A stretch of 64,000 nt of DNA from an uncultured Pelagibacteraceae bacterium (lineage in GTDB: Bacteria > Pseudomonadota > Alphaproteobacteria > Pelagibacterales > Pelagibacteraceae). The notes below the pieces were generated by a model that saw only the letters and a list, made by a program, of their open reading frames with translations, did not search any database and had not been told where the DNA came from. Location: assembly GCA_902630065.1 (NCBI GenBank), contig CACOTF010000001.1, forward strand, positions 133,854 through 197,853, in the 5' to 3' direction. How positions within the stretch are numbered: position 1 is the first letter of the stretch; the number at the start of each line of letters is the position of its first letter. Made by a program: the position numbers and the translations under genes. Below, in pieces: positions 18,343 to 59,379 of this stretch.

Positions 18343-19383
18343 TTAATGATTTATTGACGAGGAAAAATTCCAAGAACAATCAAAACTTGGTATGTAAACT
18401 CTTGAAAGTTTTGTATTTCCAAAATTTTTGTTAAAAACATTTAACCAATTTTCAACTTGTTTTGGTTTTTTGTCTTGGCTTCCTACTTGAGCAGTAATTA
18501 CACCTTTGGGTTTTAATATTCTTTCTAAAGATGACATATTTTTCGCTGCCAAATCTATACAAAATTGATCATCATTAAGATCTACAAAGATTTGATCATA
18601 AGTATTGTCTTTGATAGATTTAATACTTTCAAAAGCATCTCCCCAAACACATTTAACTGAATTTTTTTCTGTGGCCTTCTCACCAATTTTGCTTAAATGT
18701 TTATCACAAACATCAACAACCTCGTGATCTAATTCATACCAATCAATAAATCCAAAATTTTGTGAAATGCATTCTCTTGCAACACCTCCATCACCTCCAC
18801 CAATAATTGCGGCTTTTTCTTTATTTGAGTTTAAATTAAGACCCGAATTTACAAAAGTTGAGCTATATAAATGTTCATCGCTTTCAGCTACTTGTATTTC
18901 ATTATCAATAAATAAAGCTTTTCCAAACTGTTCTAAATCAAGTATTTCAATATATTGACCAACTTTAGATTTAAAATTTTCCAAAACTTTATTAACAACA
19001 TATGATTTTTTTAAACCTGGGGAACTATAATTGTCATGATAAAGATCAATTGTATCTCTATTAAATTCTTTAATAATGATATTTGTATGTTCCATCTCAT
19101 ATTTTATTATATCCAGAGAAACTTTTGGAGATACTTTTCCACAAGTAAAAAAATCAAAGCTTACAATTTCTTTTTCTGGGAAAGTGTGAAAACTAATGTG
19201 ACTTTCAGCGAGTAAGGCAACTAATGTAAATCCTTGAGGTTCAAATTTATATTTAGAAATTTTTAAAACTGTTACTTTTGCTGCTTTAGCAATTTTATAA
19301 ACCAACTTTTCATAAAATTCAGGTGTGTATTCTTTTTTAGTTCCAACAATATCCAGTGTTATATGTTCGCCAACTTTTTCCAT
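18343..19383 (-). CDS. speD-speE: S-adenosylmethionine decarboxylase / spermidine synthase fusion
   Basis: N-terminal pyruvoyl cleavage motif LAESHISFHTFPE and TCG; C-terminal IGGGDGG aminopropyltransferase motif. Confidence 0.92.
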   Translation of the reverse strand: MEKVGEHITLDIVGTKKEYTPEFYEKLVYKIAKAAKVTVLKISKYKFEPQGFTLVALLAESHISFHTFPEKEIVSFDFFTCGKVSPKVSLDIIKYEMEHTNIIIKEFNRDTIDLYHDNYSSPGLKKSYVVNKVLENFKSKVGQYIEILDLEQFGKALFIDNEIQVAESDEHLYSSTFVNSGLNLNSNKEKAAIIGGGDGGVARECISQNFGFIDWYELDHEVVDVCDKHLSKIGEKATEKNSVKCVWGDAFESIKSIKDNTYDQIFVDLNDDQFCIDLAAKNMSSLERILKPKGVITAQVGSQDKKPKQVENWLNVFNKNFGNTKLSRVYIPSFDCSWNFSSSINH

Positions 19384-19472: not shown

Positions 19473-21506
19473 TTGAAAAACAATTGGTCAGATACCGTAG
19501 CTAAAAAGTATATAAAAAAGTATAAGAAATTAGGTCATTCTGAAGATATGGCTTTAAGAGTTTATACAACTAGGCTTTTAGGAAGAAATCCAGAATTAGT
19601 ATTGCATGGTGGTGGAAATACTTCAGTTAAGACTAGAATCAAAGATATAGATGGCAAATATTACGATGTTCTTTGCGTAAAAGGCAGTGGATGGGATATG
19701 GCTGAAATTGAACCAGCAGGCCTACCAGCTGTTAAATTAGATCCGTTGCTTACTATGAAAAAAAAGAAAATACTTTCAGACGACGACATGGTTGCATTTC
19801 AAAAAAAAAATTTAATAGATACAAAATCACCTAATCCATCAGTTGAAACTTTTTTACATGCATTTTTGCCATATAAATTTGTTGATCATACTCATTCAGA
19901 TGCAATTATGAAAATCACTAATAGACCAAATGGAGAAATGCTATCAAAAAAAATATTTGGTAAAAAGACTGCAATAGTACCTTATGTAATGCCTGGATTT
20001 AAATTAGCACAAAAAATAAATGAAATTTATTCTAAAAACCCAAATATAAATTGTTTAATTTTATTAAACCATGGAATTTTCACATTTGCAAATAATGCAA
20101 AAGATGCATACAGTTTAATGATAAAGTATATATCCGATGCTGAAAAAACTTTAACCAAACTAAAAAAGAAAAAAATAAAACAGATCAAGAAAACTAAATT
20201 TAATTTTTCAACAGCAGACATAGCTCCTATATTGAGAGGTCTTTTATCTGAAAAAAATGATAACAAATTTATCTTAAATTTTAAAAAAAATAATAAGTTA
20301 GATTATTTTATTAATGGTAAAGATATAAATAGATATTCAAATGAAGGAACAGCTACTCCTGATCATGTGATAAGAGTTAAACCATTTCCTTTAATAATAT
20401 CACCAAAACCAAAATGTAGTTTGGATGAATTTAAAAATTTAGCTGAAAAAAAATTTAAAGAATACCGGCAAAAATATAAAAAATATTTTGATGTAAACAA
20501 GAAAAAAACAAAAGAAAAAAAGGTGATGCTTGATACATCTCCTAGAGTGATACTTGTTCAGAATTTTGGTTTATTTACCGTAGGTGACAGTTTAAAAGCT
20601 GCAAAAATTGCAGGAGATTTAACTCAAACTAATGCCAATGTAATTTCAAGTGTTGAAGAGACATCCAGATATAAATTCTTATCAAAAAAAGACTTATTTG
20701 ATGTCGAGTATTGGTCCTTAGAACAATCAAAATTAAACAAAGCAAAAAAGGAATTACAAGGCAACGTTGTTGTTATCACCGGTAGCACTGGTGAAATTGG
20801 TAAAGCAACTTATAAATTATTTAAAAAATATGGAGCTGAAGTTGTTTTACTTGATATTAATAAAAGTAAGATAAATGATTTACAGACTAAAATAAGCGAT
20901 CTTTGTATTCACTGTGATGTAACCAACAAACAAAGTGTAAAAAAAGCATTTAGTAAAATTTTGGAAATTTATGGAGGTGTAGACATTTTAATATCAAATG
21001 CAGGCACTGCTATTGGTGGATCAATTGCAGAAGTTAATGATGAAATACTTCGAAAAAGTTTCGAAGATAATTTTTTCTCACATCAAAATTGTGCTTCAGA
21101 GGCTGTAAAAATTATGAAAAAACAAAATATAAATGGATGTTTGTTATTTAATATATCTAAGCAATCAGTTAATCCTGGTAAAAATTTTGGACCATATGGA
21201 TTGCCTAAGTCTGCGCTTCTAAATTTGTGTAAACAATATGCAGTTGATTATGGACACCTTGGTATTAGATCAAATGGTGTTAATGCTGATAGAATAAGAA
21301 GTGGTCTATTAAATGATAAAATGATTAAACAAAGAGCAAAAGCTAGAGAAGTAACCACGGATCAATATATGAGTGGTAATCTACTGTTAAGCGAAGTTAA
21401 AGCAGATGATGTGGCTAAAGCTTTTTATCACCTTGCTATATCAAAAAAATCAACAGGTGCTGTTTTAACTGTTGATGGTGGAAATATTGCAGCATCTTTG
21501 CGATAG
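19473..21506 (+). CDS. Bifunctional class II aldolase / short-chain dehydrogenase
   Basis: GGGNTSVK, KGSG, PSVETFLH, DHTH and NHG (aldolase); TGSTGEIG, NAG, YGLPK and VDGG (SDR); TTG start. Confidence 0.9.
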   Translation: MKNNWSDTVAKKYIKKYKKLGHSEDMALRVYTTRLLGRNPELVLHGGGNTSVKTRIKDIDGKYYDVLCVKGSGWDMAEIEPAGLPAVKLDPLLTMKKKKILSDDDMVAFQKKNLIDTKSPNPSVETFLHAFLPYKFVDHTHSDAIMKITNRPNGEMLSKKIFGKKTAIVPYVMPGFKLAQKINEIYSKNPNINCLILLNHGIFTFANNAKDAYSLMIKYISDAEKTLTKLKKKKIKQIKKTKFNFSTADIAPILRGLLSEKNDNKFILNFKKNNKLDYFINGKDINRYSNEGTATPDHVIRVKPFPLIISPKPKCSLDEFKNLAEKKFKEYRQKYKKYFDVNKKKTKEKKVMLDTSPRVILVQNFGLFTVGDSLKAAKIAGDLTQTNANVISSVEETSRYKFLSKKDLFDVEYWSLEQSKLNKAKKELQGNVVVITGSTGEIGKATYKLFKKYGAEVVLLDINKSKINDLQTKISDLCIHCDVTNKQSVKKAFSKILEIYGGVDILISNAGTAIGGSIAEVNDEILRKSFEDNFFSHQNCASEAVKIMKKQNINGCLLFNISKQSVNPGKNFGPYGLPKSALLNLCKQYAVDYGHLGIRSNGVNADRIRSGLLNDKMIKQRAKAREVTTDQYMSGNLLLSEVKADDVAKAFYHLAISKKSTGAVLTVDGGNIAASLR

Positions 21507-21523
21507 TTTTAACAATTTTATTC

Positions 21524-21552
21524 TTGCAATTTATAATTTTTGTCTTCAAAAT
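21524..21552 (+). promoter_or_regulatory. Possible sigma70 promoter for trpB2
   Basis: TTGCAA-17 nt-CAAAAT; weak evidence in AT-rich DNA. Confidence 0.25.
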
Positions 21553-21566
21553 TAAGAATATAAAAA

Positions 21567-22928
21567 ATGACTGATACAATTAAATATTTTCTTGAAGAAA
21601 GCAAAATGCCTAAAACTTGGTATAATATTGCTGCTGATTTACCAAAACCAATGGAGCCACCTCTTCATCCGGGTACTTTAAAACCCATTGGTCCTGATGA
21701 TTTAGCTCCGTTGTTTCCTATGGCTTTAATTGGTCAAGAAGTTTCTCAAGATAGAGAGATAGAAATCCCTGAACCAGTAAGACAAATTTACAAACAGTGG
21801 AGACCATCTCCTTTATATAGAGCAAGAAAATTAGAAAAGCATTTAGATACTCCTGCAAAAATTTATTATAAATATGAAGGCGTTAGTCCTTCAGGTAGTC
21901 ATAAACCTAATACTGCTGTTGCTCAAGCATTTTACAATAAAGAGGAAGGCACAAAAAAAATTACAACTGAAACAGGTGCTGGACAGTGGGGAACTTCATT
22001 AGCATTTGCATGTAAATTATTTGGAATTGAATTAGACGTATACATGGTAAAAGTAAGTTTTGAACAAAAACCTTATAGAAAACTTGTTATGCAAACATAT
22101 GGGGCAAGATGTGTTGCTAGTCCATCTAATGAAACAGATAGTGGTAAAGCAATATTAGCTAAAGATCCAGATAACACTGGTAGTTTAGGTATAGCAATAT
22201 CTGAAGCAGTTGAGATGGCAGCAAAAAATCCAGATACAAAATATGCATTAGGCAGTGTATTAAATCATGTCTTAATGCACCAAACTATTGTTGGTAATGA
22301 AGCATTGTTACAAATGGAAATGGCAGATGACTATCCTGACATTTTAGTTGGTTGTACAGGTGGAGGAAGTAATTTTTCAGGTTTAGCAAATCCATTTTTA
22401 GGTAAAAATTTTAGAGAAGGTAAAAAAACAAGAGTGATAGCTTGTGAACCTAAGTCATGCCCTACATTAACAGAGGGTAAATATGTATATGATTTTGGTG
22501 ATACAGGAAAATTAACACCATTAGTAAAAATGCATACACTTGGGTCTCAATTTATACCACCAGCAACACACTCTGGAGGCTTGAGATATCATGGTATGGC
22601 TCCTTTAGTGAGTCATTTAAAAGAAATAAATGCCCTTGAAGCTAAAGCTTATGGTCAAAAAGAATGTTTCGAAGCTGGTGTAAATTTTGCAAGAACTGAA
22701 GGAATTGTTCCAGCACCAGAAGCTACTCATGCTGTTAAGGGAGCTATAGATGCTGCTTTAGAATGTAAGAAAAATGGAGAGTCTAAAACAATTTTATTCA
22801 ACTTATGTGGTCATGGTCATTTTGATATGAAAGCATACGGAGATTACTTCGAGGGAAATTTAGCAGAAGATAAGTTTGATAAAGGTAGTATGGATAAAGC
22901 TCTTGAGGACTTACCGAAAATTGCATAG
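21567..22928 (+). CDS. trpB2: TrpB2-type PLP enzyme (stand-alone tryptophan synthase beta)
   Basis: 453 aa; PKTWYNI, GSHKPNTA (PLP Lys), TETGAGQWG, GGGSNF and GGLRYHG; no trpA nearby. Confidence 0.9.
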   Translation: MTDTIKYFLEESKMPKTWYNIAADLPKPMEPPLHPGTLKPIGPDDLAPLFPMALIGQEVSQDREIEIPEPVRQIYKQWRPSPLYRARKLEKHLDTPAKIYYKYEGVSPSGSHKPNTAVAQAFYNKEEGTKKITTETGAGQWGTSLAFACKLFGIELDVYMVKVSFEQKPYRKLVMQTYGARCVASPSNETDSGKAILAKDPDNTGSLGIAISEAVEMAAKNPDTKYALGSVLNHVLMHQTIVGNEALLQMEMADDYPDILVGCTGGGSNFSGLANPFLGKNFREGKKTRVIACEPKSCPTLTEGKYVYDFGDTGKLTPLVKMHTLGSQFIPPATHSGGLRYHGMAPLVSHLKEINALEAKAYGQKECFEAGVNFARTEGIVPAPEATHAVKGAIDAALECKKNGESKTILFNLCGHGHFDMKAYGDYFEGNLAEDKFDKGSMDKALEDLPKIA

Positions 22929-22933
22929 TTATT

Positions 22934-24034
22934 TTGAGTCTCATAACACCATTTAGAGGAATAAGACCACAGGTTAAGTTTGCTAAAAAAATCTCATCAC
23001 CAAATATAAGTTACTTAAATAATTTTAAATTTAGCAAAGACAAAAACTTTCTTAATATTTTAAATAATCCAAATATATCTTATGCAAACAAAATATTTAA
23101 AGAATTAGAAAAAAATAAAATCATATTTCAAGACAAAAAAGATAACTATTATCTTTATAAAATATCATTTAAAAAAAAATACTTGTTAGGAATAGTAGGT
23201 AAAATAAATTTAAAAAACTACGACGACAAAAAAATTTTAGGACATGAAGAGACTTTTCCTGAAAGAATAAAAAAAAGAAAACAACAGTTAATAAAGTTTA
23301 ATACACAAATTAGTCCAATATATACTACATATAAGTTAAATAAGTTGTCTTTATCAACTTTAAAAAAACTTTTTAAATTTAAACCTAATTATGAATTTAT
23401 TTCAAATGATAAATGTAAACACGAATTATGGGTAATTGAAGATAAAGATAAACAGACTAAAGTACAAAAATATTTAAATAAAATTAAAAAATTATACATT
23501 TGTGATGGACATCATAGACTTCAAGCGATGTTAAAAAGTAAAGAAAAAATTTCACCTATGATTATAGCTTTTCCAGATAAGCAAGTTGAAATATTGGATT
23601 ACAATAGAGTCATACAATCAAATTTAAATTTTAAACAAATACATAATATAATTTCAAAATACTTTTCTATTAAAATAAAGAAAACTAAAAAACTAAAAAA
23701 AAATGAAATTGGAATGTATATAAATAATACATGGTATATTATTAAATACCTAAAAAAATCCAAAGATTTAGATATTACAATTCTTAAAAAATTTATTATT
23801 GATAAAATTTTAAAAAATAAAAAAAATATAAAGTATGTATCTGGTATTAAAGGAGATGTTATATTAAAAAAACTTGTTAATTCAGGTAAATTTAATGTTG
23901 CATTTAAATTAAATCCTACAAATCTTTTACAAGTAATGTCTTTTGCTGAGAAGAAAAAGTATATGCCTCAAAAATCCACTTGGTTTCATCCAAAACCGCT
24001 TGATGGTTTAATATTGTCAAAAGTTATTTCTTAA
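22934..24034 (+). CDS. DUF1015 family protein (ParB/Srx-like fold)
   Basis: PFRGIRP, HEET, YICDGHHR and MPQKSTWFHPK motifs. Confidence 0.88.
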   Translation: MSLITPFRGIRPQVKFAKKISSPNISYLNNFKFSKDKNFLNILNNPNISYANKIFKELEKNKIIFQDKKDNYYLYKISFKKKYLLGIVGKINLKNYDDKKILGHEETFPERIKKRKQQLIKFNTQISPIYTTYKLNKLSLSTLKKLFKFKPNYEFISNDKCKHELWVIEDKDKQTKVQKYLNKIKKLYICDGHHRLQAMLKSKEKISPMIIAFPDKQVEILDYNRVIQSNLNFKQIHNIISKYFSIKIKKTKKLKKNEIGMYINNTWYIIKYLKKSKDLDITILKKFIIDKILKNKKNIKYVSGIKGDVILKKLVNSGKFNVAFKLNPTNLLQVMSFAEKKKYMPQKSTWFHPKPLDGLILSKVIS

Positions 24035-25103
24035 ATAAGTTTTCTAATCCTTCAGTTGAAGCATTACAAACTCCTTTTTCTGTTATTAATGCAGTAACAT
24101 ATTTAGCAGGTGTTACATCAAAGGCTAAATTTAATGATTTGCTTTTTTCGGGATATATTAAAACTTTATCCACTTTATTATCTTTGTTAATTCCATCCAC
24201 ATGAGAAAGTTCTTTTGGATCTCTTTCTTCTATAGGAATATCTTTTGCGTTTTTTAAATTCCAATCTATCGTTGAACTTGGTAAAGCTACGTAAAAAGGT
24301 ACCTTATTATCATGAGCTGCAAGAGCTTTTAAATAGGTTCCAATTTTATTGCACACATCTCCGTTAGATAATGTTCTATCTGTTCCAACAATACACATAT
24401 CAACCTGTCCTCTTTGCATTAATATTCCACCTGTATTATCTGCTATAATTGTATTTGGAATTTCTTCTTCATTAAGTTCATATGATGTAAGGTTTGCTCC
24501 TTGATTTCTTGGTCTAGTTTCATCTACCCAAACATGTATAGGTATTCCTTTTTTATGTGCATGATAAATAGGAGAAGTTGCTGTTCCCCAATCTATTGTA
24601 GCTAACCAACCTGCATTACAATGTGTGAGAATATTGACGGTATCTTTCTTTTTATTATATATATCTTCAATAATATTTAATCCATTTTTACCAATACTTT
24701 CACAAAATCCCTCATCCTCTTTACAAATTTCTTTAGCTTCATTGAGTGCAACATTAAATAAATCTCCAGGTTCAACAAATGACAATTTGTTATTCATTCT
24801 ATGAACTGCCCACTGAAGATTTATTGCTGTTGGTCTAGATGCAACTAATTTCTCTGAACTTTTTTTTATAAAATCTAAACTGTTATTTTCTTTTATAGCT
24901 AAAACCAATCCAAATGCAGCTGTACCTCCGATTAATGGAGCACCTCTCACTTCCATTGTTTTTATAGCATTTATCGCGTCTTTAACTGAATTTAATTCTT
25001 TTATTATAAACTTATGTGGAAGCTTTGTTTGATCTATTATTTTTACAACCTGTTTTTCTTCATCAAACCAAATTGTTTTATATTTAACACCATTAATTTT
25101 CAT
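24024..25103 (-). CDS. mtnA: Methylthioribose-1-phosphate isomerase
   Basis: DQTKLP, VRGAPLIG, SRPTAINL, THCNAGWLAT, ETRP and NKIGTY motifs. Confidence 0.95.
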   Translation of the reverse strand: MKINGVKYKTIWFDEEKQVVKIIDQTKLPHKFIIKELNSVKDAINAIKTMEVRGAPLIGGTAAFGLVLAIKENNSLDFIKKSSEKLVASRPTAINLQWAVHRMNNKLSFVEPGDLFNVALNEAKEICKEDEGFCESIGKNGLNIIEDIYNKKKDTVNILTHCNAGWLATIDWGTATSPIYHAHKKGIPIHVWVDETRPRNQGANLTSYELNEEEIPNTIIADNTGGILMQRGQVDMCIVGTDRTLSNGDVCNKIGTYLKALAAHDNKVPFYVALPSSTIDWNLKNAKDIPIEERDPKELSHVDGINKDNKVDKVLIYPEKSKSLNLAFDVTPAKYVTALITEKGVCNASTEGLENLFKK

Positions 25104-25972
25104 TAAGTAAGAACTCTTCCTGCAATTGTTTTTAATTTATCTTTAGTTTTTTGAGTTCTTTTTTCTGGAGCAGTAATTATTGCTACATCTAAGCAATTAT
25201 TAGTTGGATCCTTAGGATCAATGTGATTTTCAAAGTTCTCTATCAAATTTTTAATCATGTTTTTTGCTTTCGCTGCATTATCTAAGAGTACTTTTATAAC
25301 TTGTTGAACATCCACATTTTCATGATCTGGATGCCAGCAATCATAATCTGTTACCATTGAAACTGAAGCATATCTAATTTCTGCTTCTCTTGCTAGTTTA
25401 GCTTCTGGCATATTTGTCATTCCAATAACATCTGCTTTCCATGATCTATATAGGTTTGACTCTGCTAATGTAGAAAATTGTGGACCTTCCATTACAACAT
25501 AAGTTCCACCTCTTTGATAAGGTATGCTTTCTTTTTTTATAGCATCTTCGCAAGCATTCATCAGCCCATTTGAGGTTGGGTGTGCCATTGATACATGTGC
25601 AACAATCTCATCATCAAAAAAAGTTTTGTATCTTGCAAAAGTTCTATCAATGAATTGATCAACGATAACAAATTTACCTGGAGGCAAATCTTCCTTTAAA
25701 GATCCAACTGCTGAAACAGAAACTATATCTGTGATACCTAGTTGTTTAAGAGCATCTATATTTGCTCTAAAATTTATTTTTGATGGAGAAATAAAATGAC
25801 CTTTTCCATGTCTTGGTAAAAAAAAAATTTCTTTATTATTATATTCAGCTTTTAATATTAAATCTGAGGGTTTTCCCCAAGGAGTGTTTAAATCTAAAGT
25901 TTCTCTATCTTTAAACTCTTCAACATCATATAGGCCACTTCCACCAATAATTGCTAATTTATTATTTGCCAT
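25103..25972 (-). CDS. mtnP: Methylthioadenosine phosphorylase
   Basis: IIGGSGLY, RHG, EGPQFSTLAES, GMT and TDYDCWH motifs. Confidence 0.95.
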   Translation of the reverse strand: MANNKLAIIGGSGLYDVEEFKDRETLDLNTPWGKPSDLILKAEYNNKEIFFLPRHGKGHFISPSKINFRANIDALKQLGITDIVSVSAVGSLKEDLPPGKFVIVDQFIDRTFARYKTFFDDEIVAHVSMAHPTSNGLMNACEDAIKKESIPYQRGGTYVVMEGPQFSTLAESNLYRSWKADVIGMTNMPEAKLAREAEIRYASVSMVTDYDCWHPDHENVDVQQVIKVLLDNAAKAKNMIKNLIENFENHIDPKDPTNNCLDVAIITAPEKRTQKTKDKLKTIAGRVLT

Positions 25973-26528: not shown

Positions 26529-26605
26529 TGGTAGCGGGAAGTGGGATCGAACCACTGACCTCGGGCTTATGAGTCCCGCGCTCTAACCAACTGAGCTACC
26601 CCGCC
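26529..26605 (-). tRNA. tRNA with CAT anticodon (probably elongator Met)
   Basis: GGCGGGGTAGCTCAGTTGGTTAGAGCGCGGGACTCATAAGCCCGAGGTCAGTGGTTCGATCCCACTTCCCGCTACCA; 77 nt, encoded CCA; lacks initiator features; Ile2 not fully excluded. Confidence 0.93.
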
Positions 26606-52035: not shown

Positions 52036-52402
52036 CTTTATTTTTTTCTTCCTTTTTACTTGCGATATCTGCTTTTAATTCGTGTGGCTCTAAAGGATCA
52101 AGGAAAGGATTTCGGTATAATTTATCATGACTTTCAACTCCTATCTCTATTGTGCAATCTGTTTTTGCTTTAGCAACACATAAAATAATATATCCATCAT
52201 TTATTTGTCTATTATTTAAAGCAACTTGAGAACGTTGATCCACTTCACCATTAATCAGTTTAGCTGCACATGTAATACATCCTCCATACTGACATCCGTA
52301 TGGAAGATCGACACCTTGATCTCTTAATTCATTTAATAAAGGTTTTTTTCCACTTACTTCAAATGCACTGTTATTTCTGTTTGAGATTGTAATTTTTGTC
52401 AT
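52022..52402 (-). CDS. Plant-type [2Fe-2S] ferredoxin with C-terminal extension
   Basis: LPYGCQYGGCITC...ILCVA; ATG at 52402 overlaps the SBP56 stop (ATGA). Confidence 0.88.
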   Translation of the reverse strand: MTKITISNRNNSAFEVSGKKPLLNELRDQGVDLPYGCQYGGCITCAAKLINGEVDQRSQVALNNRQINDGYIILCVAKAKTDCTIEIGVESHDKLYRNPFLDPLEPHELKADIASKKEEKNKDEPQ

Positions 52403-53751
52403 AGCCAGATGTCGCTTGTGCAATCTCCACCTGGATATCTACTTTCATGGCACCTACTAGGTCCATTTGGCTCTTTGCCAAAATCAACAATAAAATCTTT
52501 ATTAATTTTCATTCCTCCATTTTCAACATCACAATCAATCATAATCATTGCTCCACCCTGTTTTCTAATTTCAGGATAAAATTGATTATCCCAAGTAGAA
52601 AATAATGATGTTGTTACATACATTCTTTTGCCATCTAAAGATAATTGATACATTTGAGGTCCACCAGCAATTTTAACACCATTTACTTCTGGAGCCTTTC
52701 CTAACAATCCACCCATCCAAACTTGACCAGTTAATTTTGGTTTATGCGGATCTGAAATATCGTATTGCCTCATATCCCCATGAAGCCAATTATTTATATA
52801 TAGATATTTATCATCCATTGAAACTAATATCGCTGACATAACCCCAGGTACAGGGATTGGCCAGTCAGGATGTGGTTCATTTTCAACATCGATTATTTTT
52901 TCCCATTCCCATTTTCCTTCTTTTGATTTCCAAAAATGAATTACATTTGCACTTAGCGCTGCACCACAAAATCCATGACTACTGTCAGGATTATGCATAA
53001 ATTTTACTTCTAATGGTATTAAACCATCCTCACCTAAATACATTGTTTGAACTGGCTCTTTTTTTTTAAAATCCCAAACATGAAGTCGTCTACCATATTT
53101 CAAATGACCAACTTCCTCTAAATCAAATCCAGGCATAAAAGTATTAGGGGCAGCCCATTCAGAACTAACCATCACATTATGTCTTGGTTGGTACCAGAAG
53201 TCATAACTAAAAGGTATGTCTCCCATTGAATTTTCCCATCTACCTACAATTTCAAAATCTTTGTTTAAATGTAAATATCCTCCTGGAGCTTCTCCTCTTG
53301 CATCTCCTAGAAAAGAAATGATAATTTCAGAACCTAGGCAATGAACTGTATGCGGTCCTGATAAATTAGTTTTTTTCTTTATTTCAGATCCATCTACTAC
53401 TTTATGTATTTTTGGAGCTCTAGGATCGGATGCAGTATCAACAACATAAATATTATTTGATCTAACACCTGGAACTAATAAATATTTTCTGCTCATTTTT
53501 GAGTCGCCATGACAAGAAGAACATGCATTCCATCCCATATGATGCAATTCATCACCAATACCTGGCATTTCAAGTCTATGAATTACTTTAGAATAAGTAG
53601 GGCTTTGAGGATCAACATCGACGGTTGCTAAGTAGTCTGGTTTTTGTATTCCTGTCCCTGTGTAAATCGCTATAGTATATAAAAGCTTTTCTTTTGGTGC
53701 TTTTATTGCTTCTGCAGGACTAGCATATCCGGGACCACAACATCCATCCAT
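52399..53751 (-). CDS. SBP56/SELENBP1-like protein, putative methanethiol oxidase
   Basis: CCGPGYASP, DELHHMGWNACSSC, PHTVHC, YDFWYQP, GGPQM.QLSLDG and YPGGDCTSDIW; no signal peptide. Confidence 0.9.
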   Translation of the reverse strand: MDGCCGPGYASPAEAIKAPKEKLLYTIAIYTGTGIQKPDYLATVDVDPQSPTYSKVIHRLEMPGIGDELHHMGWNACSSCHGDSKMSRKYLLVPGVRSNNIYVVDTASDPRAPKIHKVVDGSEIKKKTNLSGPHTVHCLGSEIIISFLGDARGEAPGGYLHLNKDFEIVGRWENSMGDIPFSYDFWYQPRHNVMVSSEWAAPNTFMPGFDLEEVGHLKYGRRLHVWDFKKKEPVQTMYLGEDGLIPLEVKFMHNPDSSHGFCGAALSANVIHFWKSKEGKWEWEKIIDVENEPHPDWPIPVPGVMSAILVSMDDKYLYINNWLHGDMRQYDISDPHKPKLTGQVWMGGLLGKAPEVNGVKIAGGPQMYQLSLDGKRMYVTTSLFSTWDNQFYPEIRKQGGAMIMIDCDVENGGMKINKDFIVDFGKEPNGPSRCHESRYPGGDCTSDIWL

Positions 53752-57199: not shown

Positions 57200-58162
57200 T
57201 TACTTCACTTTTAATAAAAAAACTCCAAAATAATTTTTTTTATCTGCAAAATATTTTAAGACTTTAAAGCCTGATTTATTAACTAATTTAATAAAGTTAT
57301 TTTTTGAATATTTATGAGAATTTTCAGTATGAATGCTTTCATCTTTAGTAAATTTAATATTCTTTTTATTAATTTTTAACGTGAAATTTTTTTTCGAGAT
57401 AAGATGCATTTCAATTCTATTTTTTTTTAAATTGTAGAATGCTTTATGATCAAAATTTTTAGTTTGAAAATTTGAATTACAAATTTTGTTTACTACATTT
57501 AATATATTTTTATTAAATTTTGCTGTAACTCCCAATTTATCATTATAAGCATTTTCAAGAGTTTTCTTATTTTTGATCAAATCAACCCCAATTACTAAAT
57601 AAGAATTTTTGCCTATGATTTTTGAAAAATTTTTTAATATTTTTTTTGCATTTTTGGGTAAATAATTTCCTATTGTAGATCCTGGAAAAAAACTGACTAT
57701 TTTTTTTTTGTTTTTTAAAATTTTATTTAATCTATTGGTCTGACTAAAGTCAGCACATATTGCTGTTACTTTTAAATCTGAGAATTTTTTTGCAATTATT
57801 GATGCATTTTCAAACAAATATTCCTTGCTAATATCTATAGGAATGTATTCTTTGGGTTCACTTAATGATTTTATAAATTTATTTATTTTTTTATTTGAGC
57901 CACTACCAAATTCTACAATTGTTGAATTAATTGGTAATTTCTTTCTTATCTCTTTTTGTAAGTTACCTAGTATTTCTAACTCTTTATTTGTTGGGTAATA
58001 TTCTTTAAGATTTGTAATTTTATTAAATAACTTTGAACCTTTTTCATCATAAAAATATTTAGGTAATAAATATTTTTGTTTTTTATTTAATAATCCTTGT
58101 AAGATTAATTTTTTATCGTCTTGAATTTGATTGTTTATGTTTATTAATTTTAAATTAGTCAC
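57200..58162 (-). CDS. egtD: L-histidine N-alpha-trimethyltransferase
   Basis: PKYFYD..GS.LF, EYYPT, EFGSG, GSTIGN, AYND..GVTA.FN and TENSHKY motifs. Confidence 0.92.
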   Translation of the reverse strand: MTNLKLININNQIQDDKKLILQGLLNKKQKYLLPKYFYDEKGSKLFNKITNLKEYYPTNKELEILGNLQKEIRKKLPINSTIVEFGSGSNKKINKFIKSLSEPKEYIPIDISKEYLFENASIIAKKFSDLKVTAICADFSQTNRLNKILKNKKKIVSFFPGSTIGNYLPKNAKKILKNFSKIIGKNSYLVIGVDLIKNKKTLENAYNDKLGVTAKFNKNILNVVNKICNSNFQTKNFDHKAFYNLKKNRIEMHLISKKNFTLKINKKNIKFTKDESIHTENSHKYSKNNFIKLVNKSGFKVLKYFADKKNYFGVFLLKVK

Positions 58163-59379
58163 TAGATGTCATCAGCTAGTCTGACACCACAAAACTGCCA
58201 AGTATCACTTGGGTAAAAGAAATTTCTATAAGATGCTCTGACATGATTAATAGATGTGGAATGTGAGCCACCTTTTAAGACAAACTGATTACACATGAAC
58301 TTATTATTATATTCTCCTAAATTTCCTTCATAAGGTTTATATTTTTTGTAAGGTGTATAATTACTACTTGTCCAAGCCCATAAATTTCCATAAACATCGT
58401 TTGCTTTTTCTTCTACTTCATGAAAAATTTTATTTTCTATAAAATTACCTTTTTTCTCAGATTGTTTTAAGAAATACTCTAGTTCAAATTCAGTTGGTAA
58501 TCTTTTGTTTTTGTATCTTGCAAATGCATCTGCTTCATAGAAACTTATATGAGAAACTGGCTTTTCATTATCAATTTTTTTTACACCGTTTAATGTAAAA
58601 TAATTATTATTATCTATCCAATACATTGGTTTTTGTAATTTGTTATTATTTACATAATCCCATCCATCAGATAACCAATACTCATGATTTTTATATCCTC
58701 CTTCATTAATAAATTCTTTCCACTCTCCATTGGTAACAAATGAATATATTTTAAAAGGATCTAATTGTGTTTCTGATGCTGGTAATTCGTTATCGTAACA
58801 AAAAATATCTTCGTCGTTTCCATATTTAAATTTTTTACTAGTTTCTAATGTCAATTCATTTTTTTCTTTAGCAGTTGGTTTATCATCATTAGAATTATAA
58901 GTCGGCATCAATGGATTGTTGTAAAAAATATTTTTAATATCCATTAACATTAATTCTTGATGCTGTTGTTCGTGATTTAAACCTAGTTCAACTAAAAAAG
59001 ATGTCCTGTTATTTTTTGTCCTTTTTAAAAAATCAATAATATTTTCAGTTACATAATGTCTATATTTTACAACATCTTTTAAGATGGGTCTATTTAGTGA
59101 ACCTCTCTTATTTCGAGGATTGTATTCACCTACAGAATTGTAATATGAATTAAATATATAATTATAATCTTTGTTGAAAGGTTTGTAACTTTCATCCAAT
59201 TCAGACAAGATGAATTTTTCGAAGAACCATGTGGTGTGACCAAGATGCCACTTAAGAGGACTAACATTTTTGCTGGGCTGTATGACCATATCCTCAGCCT
59301 CTAAGTTTTCGCACAGGGATAGAGTTTGTTGTCTTGTTTTGGAGAATAATTCTGTAATTTGAGATGATTTGTTTTCCAT
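58162..59379 (-). CDS. egtB: Ergothioneine sulfoxide synthase
   Basis: SPLKWHLGHTTWFFE, FNSYY, HEQQHQE, RLPTE, EYN.KFM and RASYRNFF motifs. Confidence 0.92.
   Translation of the reverse strand: MENKSSQITELFSKTRQQTLSLCENLEAEDMVIQPSKNVSPLKWHLGHTTWFFEKFILSELDESYKPFNKDYNYIFNSYYNSVGEYNPRNKRGSLNRPILKDVVKYRHYVTENIIDFLKRTKNNRTSFLVELGLNHEQQHQELMLMDIKNIFYNNPLMPTYNSNDDKPTAKEKNELTLETSKKFKYGNDEDIFCYDNELPASETQLDPFKIYSFVTNGEWKEFINEGGYKNHEYWLSDGWDYVNNNKLQKPMYWIDNNNYFTLNGVKKIDNEKPVSHISFYEADAFARYKNKRLPTEFELEYFLKQSEKKGNFIENKIFHEVEEKANDVYGNLWAWTSSNYTPYKKYKPYEGNLGEYNNKFMCNQFVLKGGSHSTSINHVRASYRNFFYPSDTWQFCGVRLADDI

Follow-up and report, generated by a model that had tools for sequence, protein, structure and literature searches.

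We analysed a 64,000-nucleotide stretch of DNA (the window) from an uncultured Pelagibacteraceae bacterium (GCA_902630065.1, contig CACOTF010000001.1, positions 133,854 to 197,853 of the forward strand). In this window trpB2, encoding a stand-alone type-2 tryptophan synthase beta chain of 453 amino acids (aa) (21567..22928, + strand, ATG to TAG), is followed after a spacer of 5 nucleotides (nt) (22929..22933) by a gene of the DUF1015/SerBK family whose product is of a short type of 366 aa (22934..24034, + strand, TTG to TAA). Our results indicate that the DUF1015 protein is probably a free-serine kinase feeding O-phosphoserine to TrpB2 for the production of tryptophan from indole, and that the pair may be what is left, after reduction, of a cassette of four genes, trpB2-DUF1015(serBK)-serC-serA. 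This interpretation is based on the identities of the genes, the fold and catalytic residues of DUF1015, the adjacency of both genes, their joint retention in genomes where serC, serA and serB were not found, and the purifying selection acting on them.

The initial annotation of the locus had described a stand-alone TrpB2 and, 5 nt later, a DUF1015 gene with HEE and DGHHR motifs, and the coordinates together with the TIGR01415 and PF06245 models confirmed this description. The genome (G000) comprises 963 kb, is 67.7% complete and has a guanine-plus-cytosine (GC) content of 30%.

A predicted serine kinase fold in the short DUF1015 protein

The DUF1015 gene scored 168.2 bits with PF06245 (gathering cut-off 25.8; E 3e-49), and its homologues begin at the same residue as the TTG-initiated open reading frame (ORF) of the window. 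An AlphaFold2 model was built from 126 sequences, with a predicted local distance difference test score of 93.5. The nine best Foldseek matches of this model were all SbnI, SerK or 1vk1, an orthologue of SerK (E 2e-7 to 1.1e-5), the next one having an E of 2.8e-3. Similarly, a VIA search of 48,161 chains returned SerK (5x0b; Z 15.2, root-mean-square deviation 4.7, 225 residues aligned) and SbnI (5ujd; Z 12.7, root-mean-square deviation 4.2, 211 aligned), followed by a match at Z 5.8; ParB reached Z 4-5. The model therefore predicts the ParB/Srx kinase fold of SerK and SbnI, the structural match that the initial annotation had set as a check of its proposal.

The catalytic motifs of these kinases appear to be kept. 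His104-Glu105 (23243..23248, + strand) aligns with His29-Glu30 of 1vk1 and is invariant in the 126 aligned sequences; the SerK structures include mutants at Glu30 (E30A/E30Q entries). In the HEE motif noticed initially (H104-E105-E106) only the first two residues are invariant, E106 being present in 101 of 120 close homologues. The DGHHR motif (D191-R195; 23504..23518, + strand), found in 120/120 of these homologues, aligns with D69-R73 of 1vk1, and the C-terminal PxKSTWFxPK motif (23966..23995, + strand) aligns with its SPKTT end. This register (E105=E30, D191-R195=D69-R73, K347/T349=K221/T223) leans on the fold match, as the profile alignment (E 0.47-1.2) is weak alone. At the sequence level, phmmer gave no match to SerK or SbnI, the profile comparison gave E 0.47, and identity on the structural superposition was 12-14%; since this similarity is not significant, we liken the protein to SerK/SbnI in its working and do not file it as a member of that group. 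When DUF1015 was compared with the PDB as a single sequence, only chance matches to myosin were recovered.

TrpB2 and its place in tryptophan metabolism

TrpB2 scored 626.9 bits with TIGR01415 (cut-off 518.85) and 729.7 with NF009057 (cut-off 366), versus just 146 with the TrpB1 model, and its nearest solved relatives in a PDB search were the Sulfolobus-type TrpB2 structures 6hul, 4qys and 6hte. Cysteine-synthase models gave 42.3 (cysK), 26 (cysM) and 23.8 bits (SbnA), against cut-offs of 350-394. Lys113, the lysine that binds pyridoxal phosphate (PLP) (SHKPN; 21903..21905, + strand), and Glu135 (TETGAGQ; 21969..21971, + strand) are invariant in the 48 copies of the genus and in one further alignment; from established TrpB chemistry, we take Glu135 to be the indole-activating glutamate. 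Equally invariant (48/48) is Arg340 (GLRYH; 22584..22586, + strand), located at the site occupied by Asp in the serine-using TrpB1 and by Arg in TrpB2; this Arg binds phosphoserine through its phosphate (10.64898/2026.03.11.711232). On every feature that can be tested from sequence, the window protein is a TrpB2.

In the same genome, contig C2 carries trpF-trpB1-trpA and contig C9 carries trpC. TrpB2 is thus an extra copy, and the initial remark that trpA is missing holds for the locus and fails for the genome. By location alone, outside a trp operon and with trpB1-trpA elsewhere, the gene falls in the TrpB2_o subgroup. The PLP fold-II enzymes recognised in these genomes are a cysteine synthase encoded beside cysE, a threonine synthase, TrpB1, a diaminopropionate ammonia-lyase, a dehydratase-like protein and TrpB2. 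Judged by these annotations, TrpB2 is the sole recognised phosphoserine user among them, and it is the one encoded next to DUF1015.

We considered whether the pair makes up for an absent de novo tryptophan pathway, and rejected this since trpC was present in 5/5 genomes tested and trpB1 with trpA in 4/4 examined. Two TrpB1 types, 33.5% identical, occupy the same pyrF-trpF-trpB-trpA-accD slot (L029:1447-2637 of G000, L238 and L234 versus L236, L242 and L235). In one of them Asp replaces the indole glutamate, and in the other Thr or Gln replaces the serine-binding Asp; either type might leak indole. The pair does not track one of these types, as both occur with it. An unusual trpB1 cluster in SAR11 has been noted before (PMC2395257).

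Distribution of the cassette

In a draw of 401 genomes from the genus, inferred to be Pelagibacter, trpB2 was found in 48, DUF1015 in 54 and serC in 32, and none of the three in 344. All three occurred together in 23 genomes, DUF1015 and serC without trpB2 in 6, and trpB2 and DUF1015 without serC in 25, of which 23 have the short type and two a long type cut by contig ends. Three genomes showed serC alone, the matches being partial or located at the end of a contig. No genome had trpB2 without DUF1015 (0/401), or DUF1015 without serC or trpB2 (0/401). Forty-five of the 48 trpB2 genes are located directly before DUF1015, an adjacency far beyond chance in this draw; in one further genome contig ends separate the two genes, and in the other two they are unlinked. 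The initial proposal had depended on this adjacency being conserved elsewhere, as it is both in the genus and in two other lineages (see below).

The DUF1015 genes of the genus are of two kinds. The long form (400 aa) belongs to trpB2-DUF1015-serC-serA or DUF1015-serC-serA arrangements located at at least four chromosomal sites, and the short form (363-367 aa) to the trpB2-DUF1015 pair alone. All fully assembled short-type pairs adjoin mtnA; twelve of the trpB2-DUF1015 cassettes in the genus lie away from that gene. The spacing between trpB2 and DUF1015 is 5-9 nt in the two-gene form versus 31-82 nt in the four-gene form. serC was found in none of the 23 short-form genomes, this one included, about 18 of which should show the gene if it were present. 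No serC, serB or serA orthologue was found in G180 and G200, which are closed genomes; five short-type genomes tested, the closed ones included, lack a recognisable serA orthologue (at most 36% identity), and matches to the SerB model TIGR00338 stayed under the cut-off in G000, G180, G200 and G148. Hence, the context described for SerBK, with serA and serC in the genome, is present around the long type and was not found with the short type. The co-occurrence analysis suggested by the initial annotation thus showed the pair to be kept where serC, serA and serB were not found.

On the other hand, DUF1015 accompanies serC in 29 of the 401 genomes, and in 27 of these it was seen in line with serA (long-form cassettes L032, L033 and L068-L115). 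These gene sets suggest that about 29 genomes carry a serine pathway that is probably complete. In a recent survey, genomes of this kind received a partial score for the pathway, and the dependency on glycine/serine was considered genus-wide. Among the 72 genus genomes that are more than 90% complete, serC was found in none. In the sister family f2 (L003-L023 and L035-L037), DUF1015 is present in 21/24 genomes and is not adjacent to trpB2, which lies elsewhere in the genome in one genus; serC follows DUF1015 in the loci read, and then serA in the three read widely.

Beyond these families, the complete trpB2-DUF1015-serC-serA order was found in 30/30 top-scoring loci of one group within the order of isolate AG-337-F02 (G429). 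In a Rhodospirillaceae-like family (G425) trpB2 lies directly before DUF1015 in 5/30 loci, with serC elsewhere and serB not found. The cassettes of both lineages are located away from mtnA. In an alphaproteobacterial class draw, serC was present in 5/5 other trpB2-bearing genomes; together with DUF1015 in 48/48 trpB2 genomes of the genus, this means that a possible source of phosphoserine is present in each trpB2 genome in which both genes were looked for. In the same draw, serB was found in 0/8 DUF1015 genomes versus 28/52 of the others (Fisher p 0.005), consistent with ordinary DUF1015 members standing in for SerB. In the G425 family (L260-L289 and L336-L355) DUF1015 is found in the degP...miaA position, the place of serB in other Alphaproteobacteria, where miaA adjoins 19/20 serB loci; this is an in-place displacement of serB.

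Three further loci deserve mention. In G672 (L428) trpB2 is convergent with a canonical serB less than 1 kb away, which adds one isolated instance of trpB2 close to a gene of phosphoserine metabolism. In the G429 order (L320-L329) there is another shortened type of DUF1015, of 380 aa, which occurs with serC-serA and has no trpB2 adjacent; shortening alone does not, therefore, imply the loss of the serine genes. Finally, the cassette at L334 (G594) reads trpB2-DUF1015-serA and does not include serC, which makes it a candidate intermediate of cassette reduction.

Selection on the short DUF1015 gene

Maximum-likelihood estimates of omega were 0.078 for the short DUF1015 genes, 0.036 for the long ones, 0.008-0.011 for trpB2 (0.008 for the type of the window) and 0.034 for mtnA; the corresponding NG86 medians were 0.137, 0.102, 0.020-0.036 and 0.068. 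The reading frame is intact in 21/21 fully assembled short copies, the catalytic residues being invariant across 51-66% identity, and the 120 closest database homologues, of 366-367 aa, all keep GHE, DGHHR, DYNR and PxKSTWFxPK intact. In view of the low omega and the intact homologues, we rejected the reading of the short gene as a pseudogene. We take the pattern in these sequences to reflect a constraint that has relaxed or shifted while the active site stayed conserved, rather than decay.

Proposed function and alternative explanations

In the full cassette, SerA and SerC would make phosphoserine, DUF1015 would substitute for SerB, and TrpB2 would draw on the same phosphoserine pool. In the lineage of the window serC and serA would have been lost, and the short DUF1015 protein would run forward, converting serine and ATP or ADP to O-phosphoserine, with serine supplied by uptake or by GlyA. 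TrpB2 would then eliminate the phosphate and join the resulting aminoacrylate to indole, forming tryptophan; the indole would come from a leak of TrpA/TrpB1 or from seawater. What we infer here from the observations above are both activities, the direction and nucleotide donor of the kinase, an order of events in which serC-serA were lost, and the indole source. The kinase direction is favoured because, without SerA and SerC, there would be no internal phosphoserine to dephosphorylate, nor a SerC/SerA route consuming the product. It is also the thermodynamically favoured direction, the backward reaction having an estimated K of 4e-4 (GapMind 2026, PMC13759103). Since de novo synthesis of tryptophan is still available to the cell, the module would serve for salvage. 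The initial annotation had proposed a module of this kind, in which DUF1015 provides phosphoserine to an indole-using TrpB2. Structure, adjacency and co-retention support that idea, which missed the probable derivation from trpB2-DUF1015-serC-serA and the earlier proposal of SerBK as a kinase.

Several observations weigh against this interpretation. The short proteins group in a single clade (SH-aLRT 99), their TrpB2 partners nearly do so, and the hosts are clustered, with 4-5 changes on a recA tree; as a result, the 23 short-form genomes are not independent. Short and long DUF1015 proteins are 36-39% identical, with about 35 residues of surface segments lost in the former, whereas the TrpB2 proteins are 83-96% identical. 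Besides, the short form evolves twice as fast (omega 0.078 versus 0.036) and is very basic (isoelectric point 10.05-10.28, 19% Lys), its gene having 20.5% GC. This low identity, together with the deletions, the faster evolution and the charge, implies that its function may have shifted. As our DUF1015 tree is a quick version with long branches, a descent of the short form from the long one is tentative. Outside the lineages mentioned, trpB2 was present in 20/50 DUF1015 genomes and directly adjacent in 2/80 loci, a loose association that rules out a universal link between both genes. The 67.7% completeness of this genome limits the absences recorded in it. Lastly, the published test of a DUF1015 protein is complementation of serB, that is, in the opposite direction, and the kinase role of the present one is predicted from its sequence and model.

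The short gene could be a relic that has persisted beside trpB2 since serC-serA were lost, TrpB2 using free serine. Its faster evolution, deletions, low GC content and Lys-rich composition would fit such a relic, which we nevertheless consider unlikely in view of an omega far below 1, of frames and catalytic residues preserved in every copy inspected (21/21 and 120/120 sequences), of the lack of any genome with trpB2 only among the 401, and of the Arg340 retained in TrpB2. Another option is that both enzymes use imported phosphoserine, with DUF1015 running backwards to provide serine to a serine/glycine auxotroph. In support of it, a DUF1015 protein complements E. coli serB (GapMind 2026), the genus depends on outside glycine/serine according to the recent survey, and DUF1015 and serB were mutually exclusive in the alphaproteobacterial draw. 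The unfavourable equilibrium of the backward reaction and the lack of a phosphoserine transporter linked to the cassette make this option quite unlikely; it would also leave unexplained why the short form never occurs without trpB2. A regulatory role of the short DUF1015 protein, as a nucleotide- or DNA-binding regulator of trpB2 and not an enzyme, is suggested by its ParB/Srx-related fold and uniformly basic character, but seems hardly credible: the whole set of kinase motifs is kept, the best structural matches are SerK/SbnI and not ParB (Z 15 versus 4-5), a domain profile search detected no DNA-binding domain, and AT-driven drift explains the charge.

As an alternative to indole, the initial annotation had contemplated that the nucleophile used by TrpB2 is sulfide or methanethiol. 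The products would then be cysteine or S-methylcysteine, and the pair would be tied to methylthioadenosine salvage. All fully assembled short-type pairs adjoin mtnA, which a single origin explains and a functional tie would explain as well. Moreover, in Rhodopseudomonas methanethiol is reached through MtnP-MtnA-Ald2 (PMC5893883), in Thermococcus SerK supplies the synthesis of cysteine (PMC5120207), and the genus was described as devoid of sulfate reduction in the recent survey. If this were the case, sulfur-limited SAR11 cells would fix methanethiol or sulfide, from the methylthioadenosine shunt or from dimethylsulfoniopropionate, via phosphoserine, a TrpB2 function not described so far. The genomic context gave no support to this possibility, as the cassette lies on the opposite strand within an operon that is contiguous without it, and twelve cassettes of the genus as well as those of the two other lineages are found away from mtnA. 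Considering also that Glu135 is invariant, that the cysteine-synthase models scored below 45 bits against cut-offs of about 350, and that this genome has its own cysK-cysE, we judge it very unlikely.

Relation to known systems

The DUF1015 family was named SerBK by GapMind 2026 (10.1101/2024.10.14.618325, PMC13759103), where it was proposed as a serine kinase replacing SerB, the direction being left open; in that work the member CBO1128 complemented an E. coli serB mutant, which goes in the direction opposite to the kinase reaction. The window protein shares with SerBK members (CDIF630erm_01132, CBO1128, BT1151) the Pfam family, an SbnI-like predicted fold, the catalytic residues and a serB-less genome. 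Those proteins have about 400-415 aa, lie with serA/serC and are proposed to act in serine synthesis and use. In contrast, the one reported here has 366 aa, is about 30% identical to distant members, is tied to trpB2 and resides in a genome where serA and serC were not found. SerK (Thermococcus kodakarensis TK0378, PMC5120207) and SbnI (Staphylococcus) have in common with it the ParB/Srx kinase fold and the HE, DGxHR and PKxT motifs; they differ in the 12-14% identity, in being about 120 residues shorter, and in the partner, which in the present case is a tryptophan synthase. The logic is the same: phosphoserine is made for a PLP-dependent beta-replacement enzyme, cysteine synthase in the case of SerK (PMC5120207) and an enzyme of staphyloferrin B synthesis in that of SbnI.

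Stand-alone TrpB2_o enzymes are phosphoserine-dependent and salvage indole, according to the accounts of Busch 2014, Hettwer and Sterner 2002 and Hiyama 2014 given in PMC11917138 and PMC12727527. The window TrpB2 resembles them in its family score, in the Arg at the Asp/Arg site and in its location outside a trp operon. An earlier survey found no conserved trpB2 neighbourhood beyond trp operons (PMC1854888); here, three alphaproteobacterial lineages show trpB2 linked to genes of phosphoserine metabolism, including cells where SerA and SerC were not found. This conserved neighbourhood therefore lends genomic support to the use of phosphoserine by TrpB2 in vivo. Both the kinase proposal for DUF1015 (SerBK) and the use of phosphoserine by TrpB2 had been published, the genomic pairing and the reduced cassette being new. 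A pairing of TrpB2 with a free-serine kinase was not found in the literature searched, whose coverage leaves out most subscription papers.

The reduced cassette can be regarded as a natural experiment on the phosphatase-or-kinase question, as a DUF1015 gene kept under selection without serA/serC would have nothing to dephosphorylate. Indole salvage is predicted for about 12% (48/401) of the sampled genomes of an abundant marine genus. Tryptophan is a costly amino acid, and the pair would capture stray indole at the expense of ATP spent on serine. Our results also bear on the nutrition of SAR11, as some members of a genus considered serine/glycine-dependent probably have a complete serine pathway.

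Neighbourhood of the cassette

Downstream of the cassette, mtnA and mtnP (24024..25972, - strand) are convergent with it, the 3' ends overlapping by 11 nt; apt lies beyond them and is followed by a tRNA gene (26532..26605, - strand). This tRNA was the single Rfam match in the window, no riboswitch being detected. On the upstream side are a gene for a class II aldolase/short-chain dehydrogenase fusion (19473..21506, + strand; NF006192, 898 against a cut-off of 639) and a fused speD-speE, a single 346-aa ORF as in relatives (18343..19383, - strand). In three relatives without the cassette, mtnP-mtnA-ald2-speDE is contiguous on one strand, from which we conclude that the cassette is an opposite-strand insertion into this run. 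The initial annotation had placed the pair inside a methylthio-salvage cluster, which is accurate as to position; in orientation, the pair is opposite to mtnA/mtnP and speDE. The dihydroxyacetone phosphate (DHAP) shunt MtnP-MtnA-Ald2 (PMC5893883) is hence a physical neighbour that lies on the other strand, is intact without the cassette and is absent from the other cassette sites: it is the host site and not a partner, and the genes do not form a co-oriented operon.

The fusion gene fills the place held by ald2 in other genomes. Beside the cassette, the fusion was found in 16 loci versus 12 with the FucA-like ald2, both together in none, and a search for ald2 in this genome gave no match other than the fusion. 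It is perhaps a DHAP-shunt aldolase joined to a methylthioacetaldehyde reductase, or an unrelated gene that displaced ald2.

Regarding transcription, a CTTG element (21523..21529, + strand) lies 44 nt ahead of the start of trpB2 and was present in 46/48 copies of the genus, the remaining two being truncated or read as N. With CTTG as a putative -35 box, the cassette has what looks like its own promoter, a candidate based on conservation upstream of trpB2. The best sigma-70 site (21509-21537), which is not conserved in relatives, was dropped in favour of this element; the scan had given 24 sites versus 31 expected.

Elsewhere in the window, the N-termini of two ORFs at 57203-59379 (- strand), which we take to be EgtD-like (320 aa, 20% GC) and EgtB-like (405 aa), would suggest an ergothioneine-type synthesis. 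A 450-aa ORF (52402-53751, - strand) begins with CCGPGY, presumably typical of the selenium-binding protein/methanethiol oxidase families, and such an oxidase would offer another fate for methanethiol.

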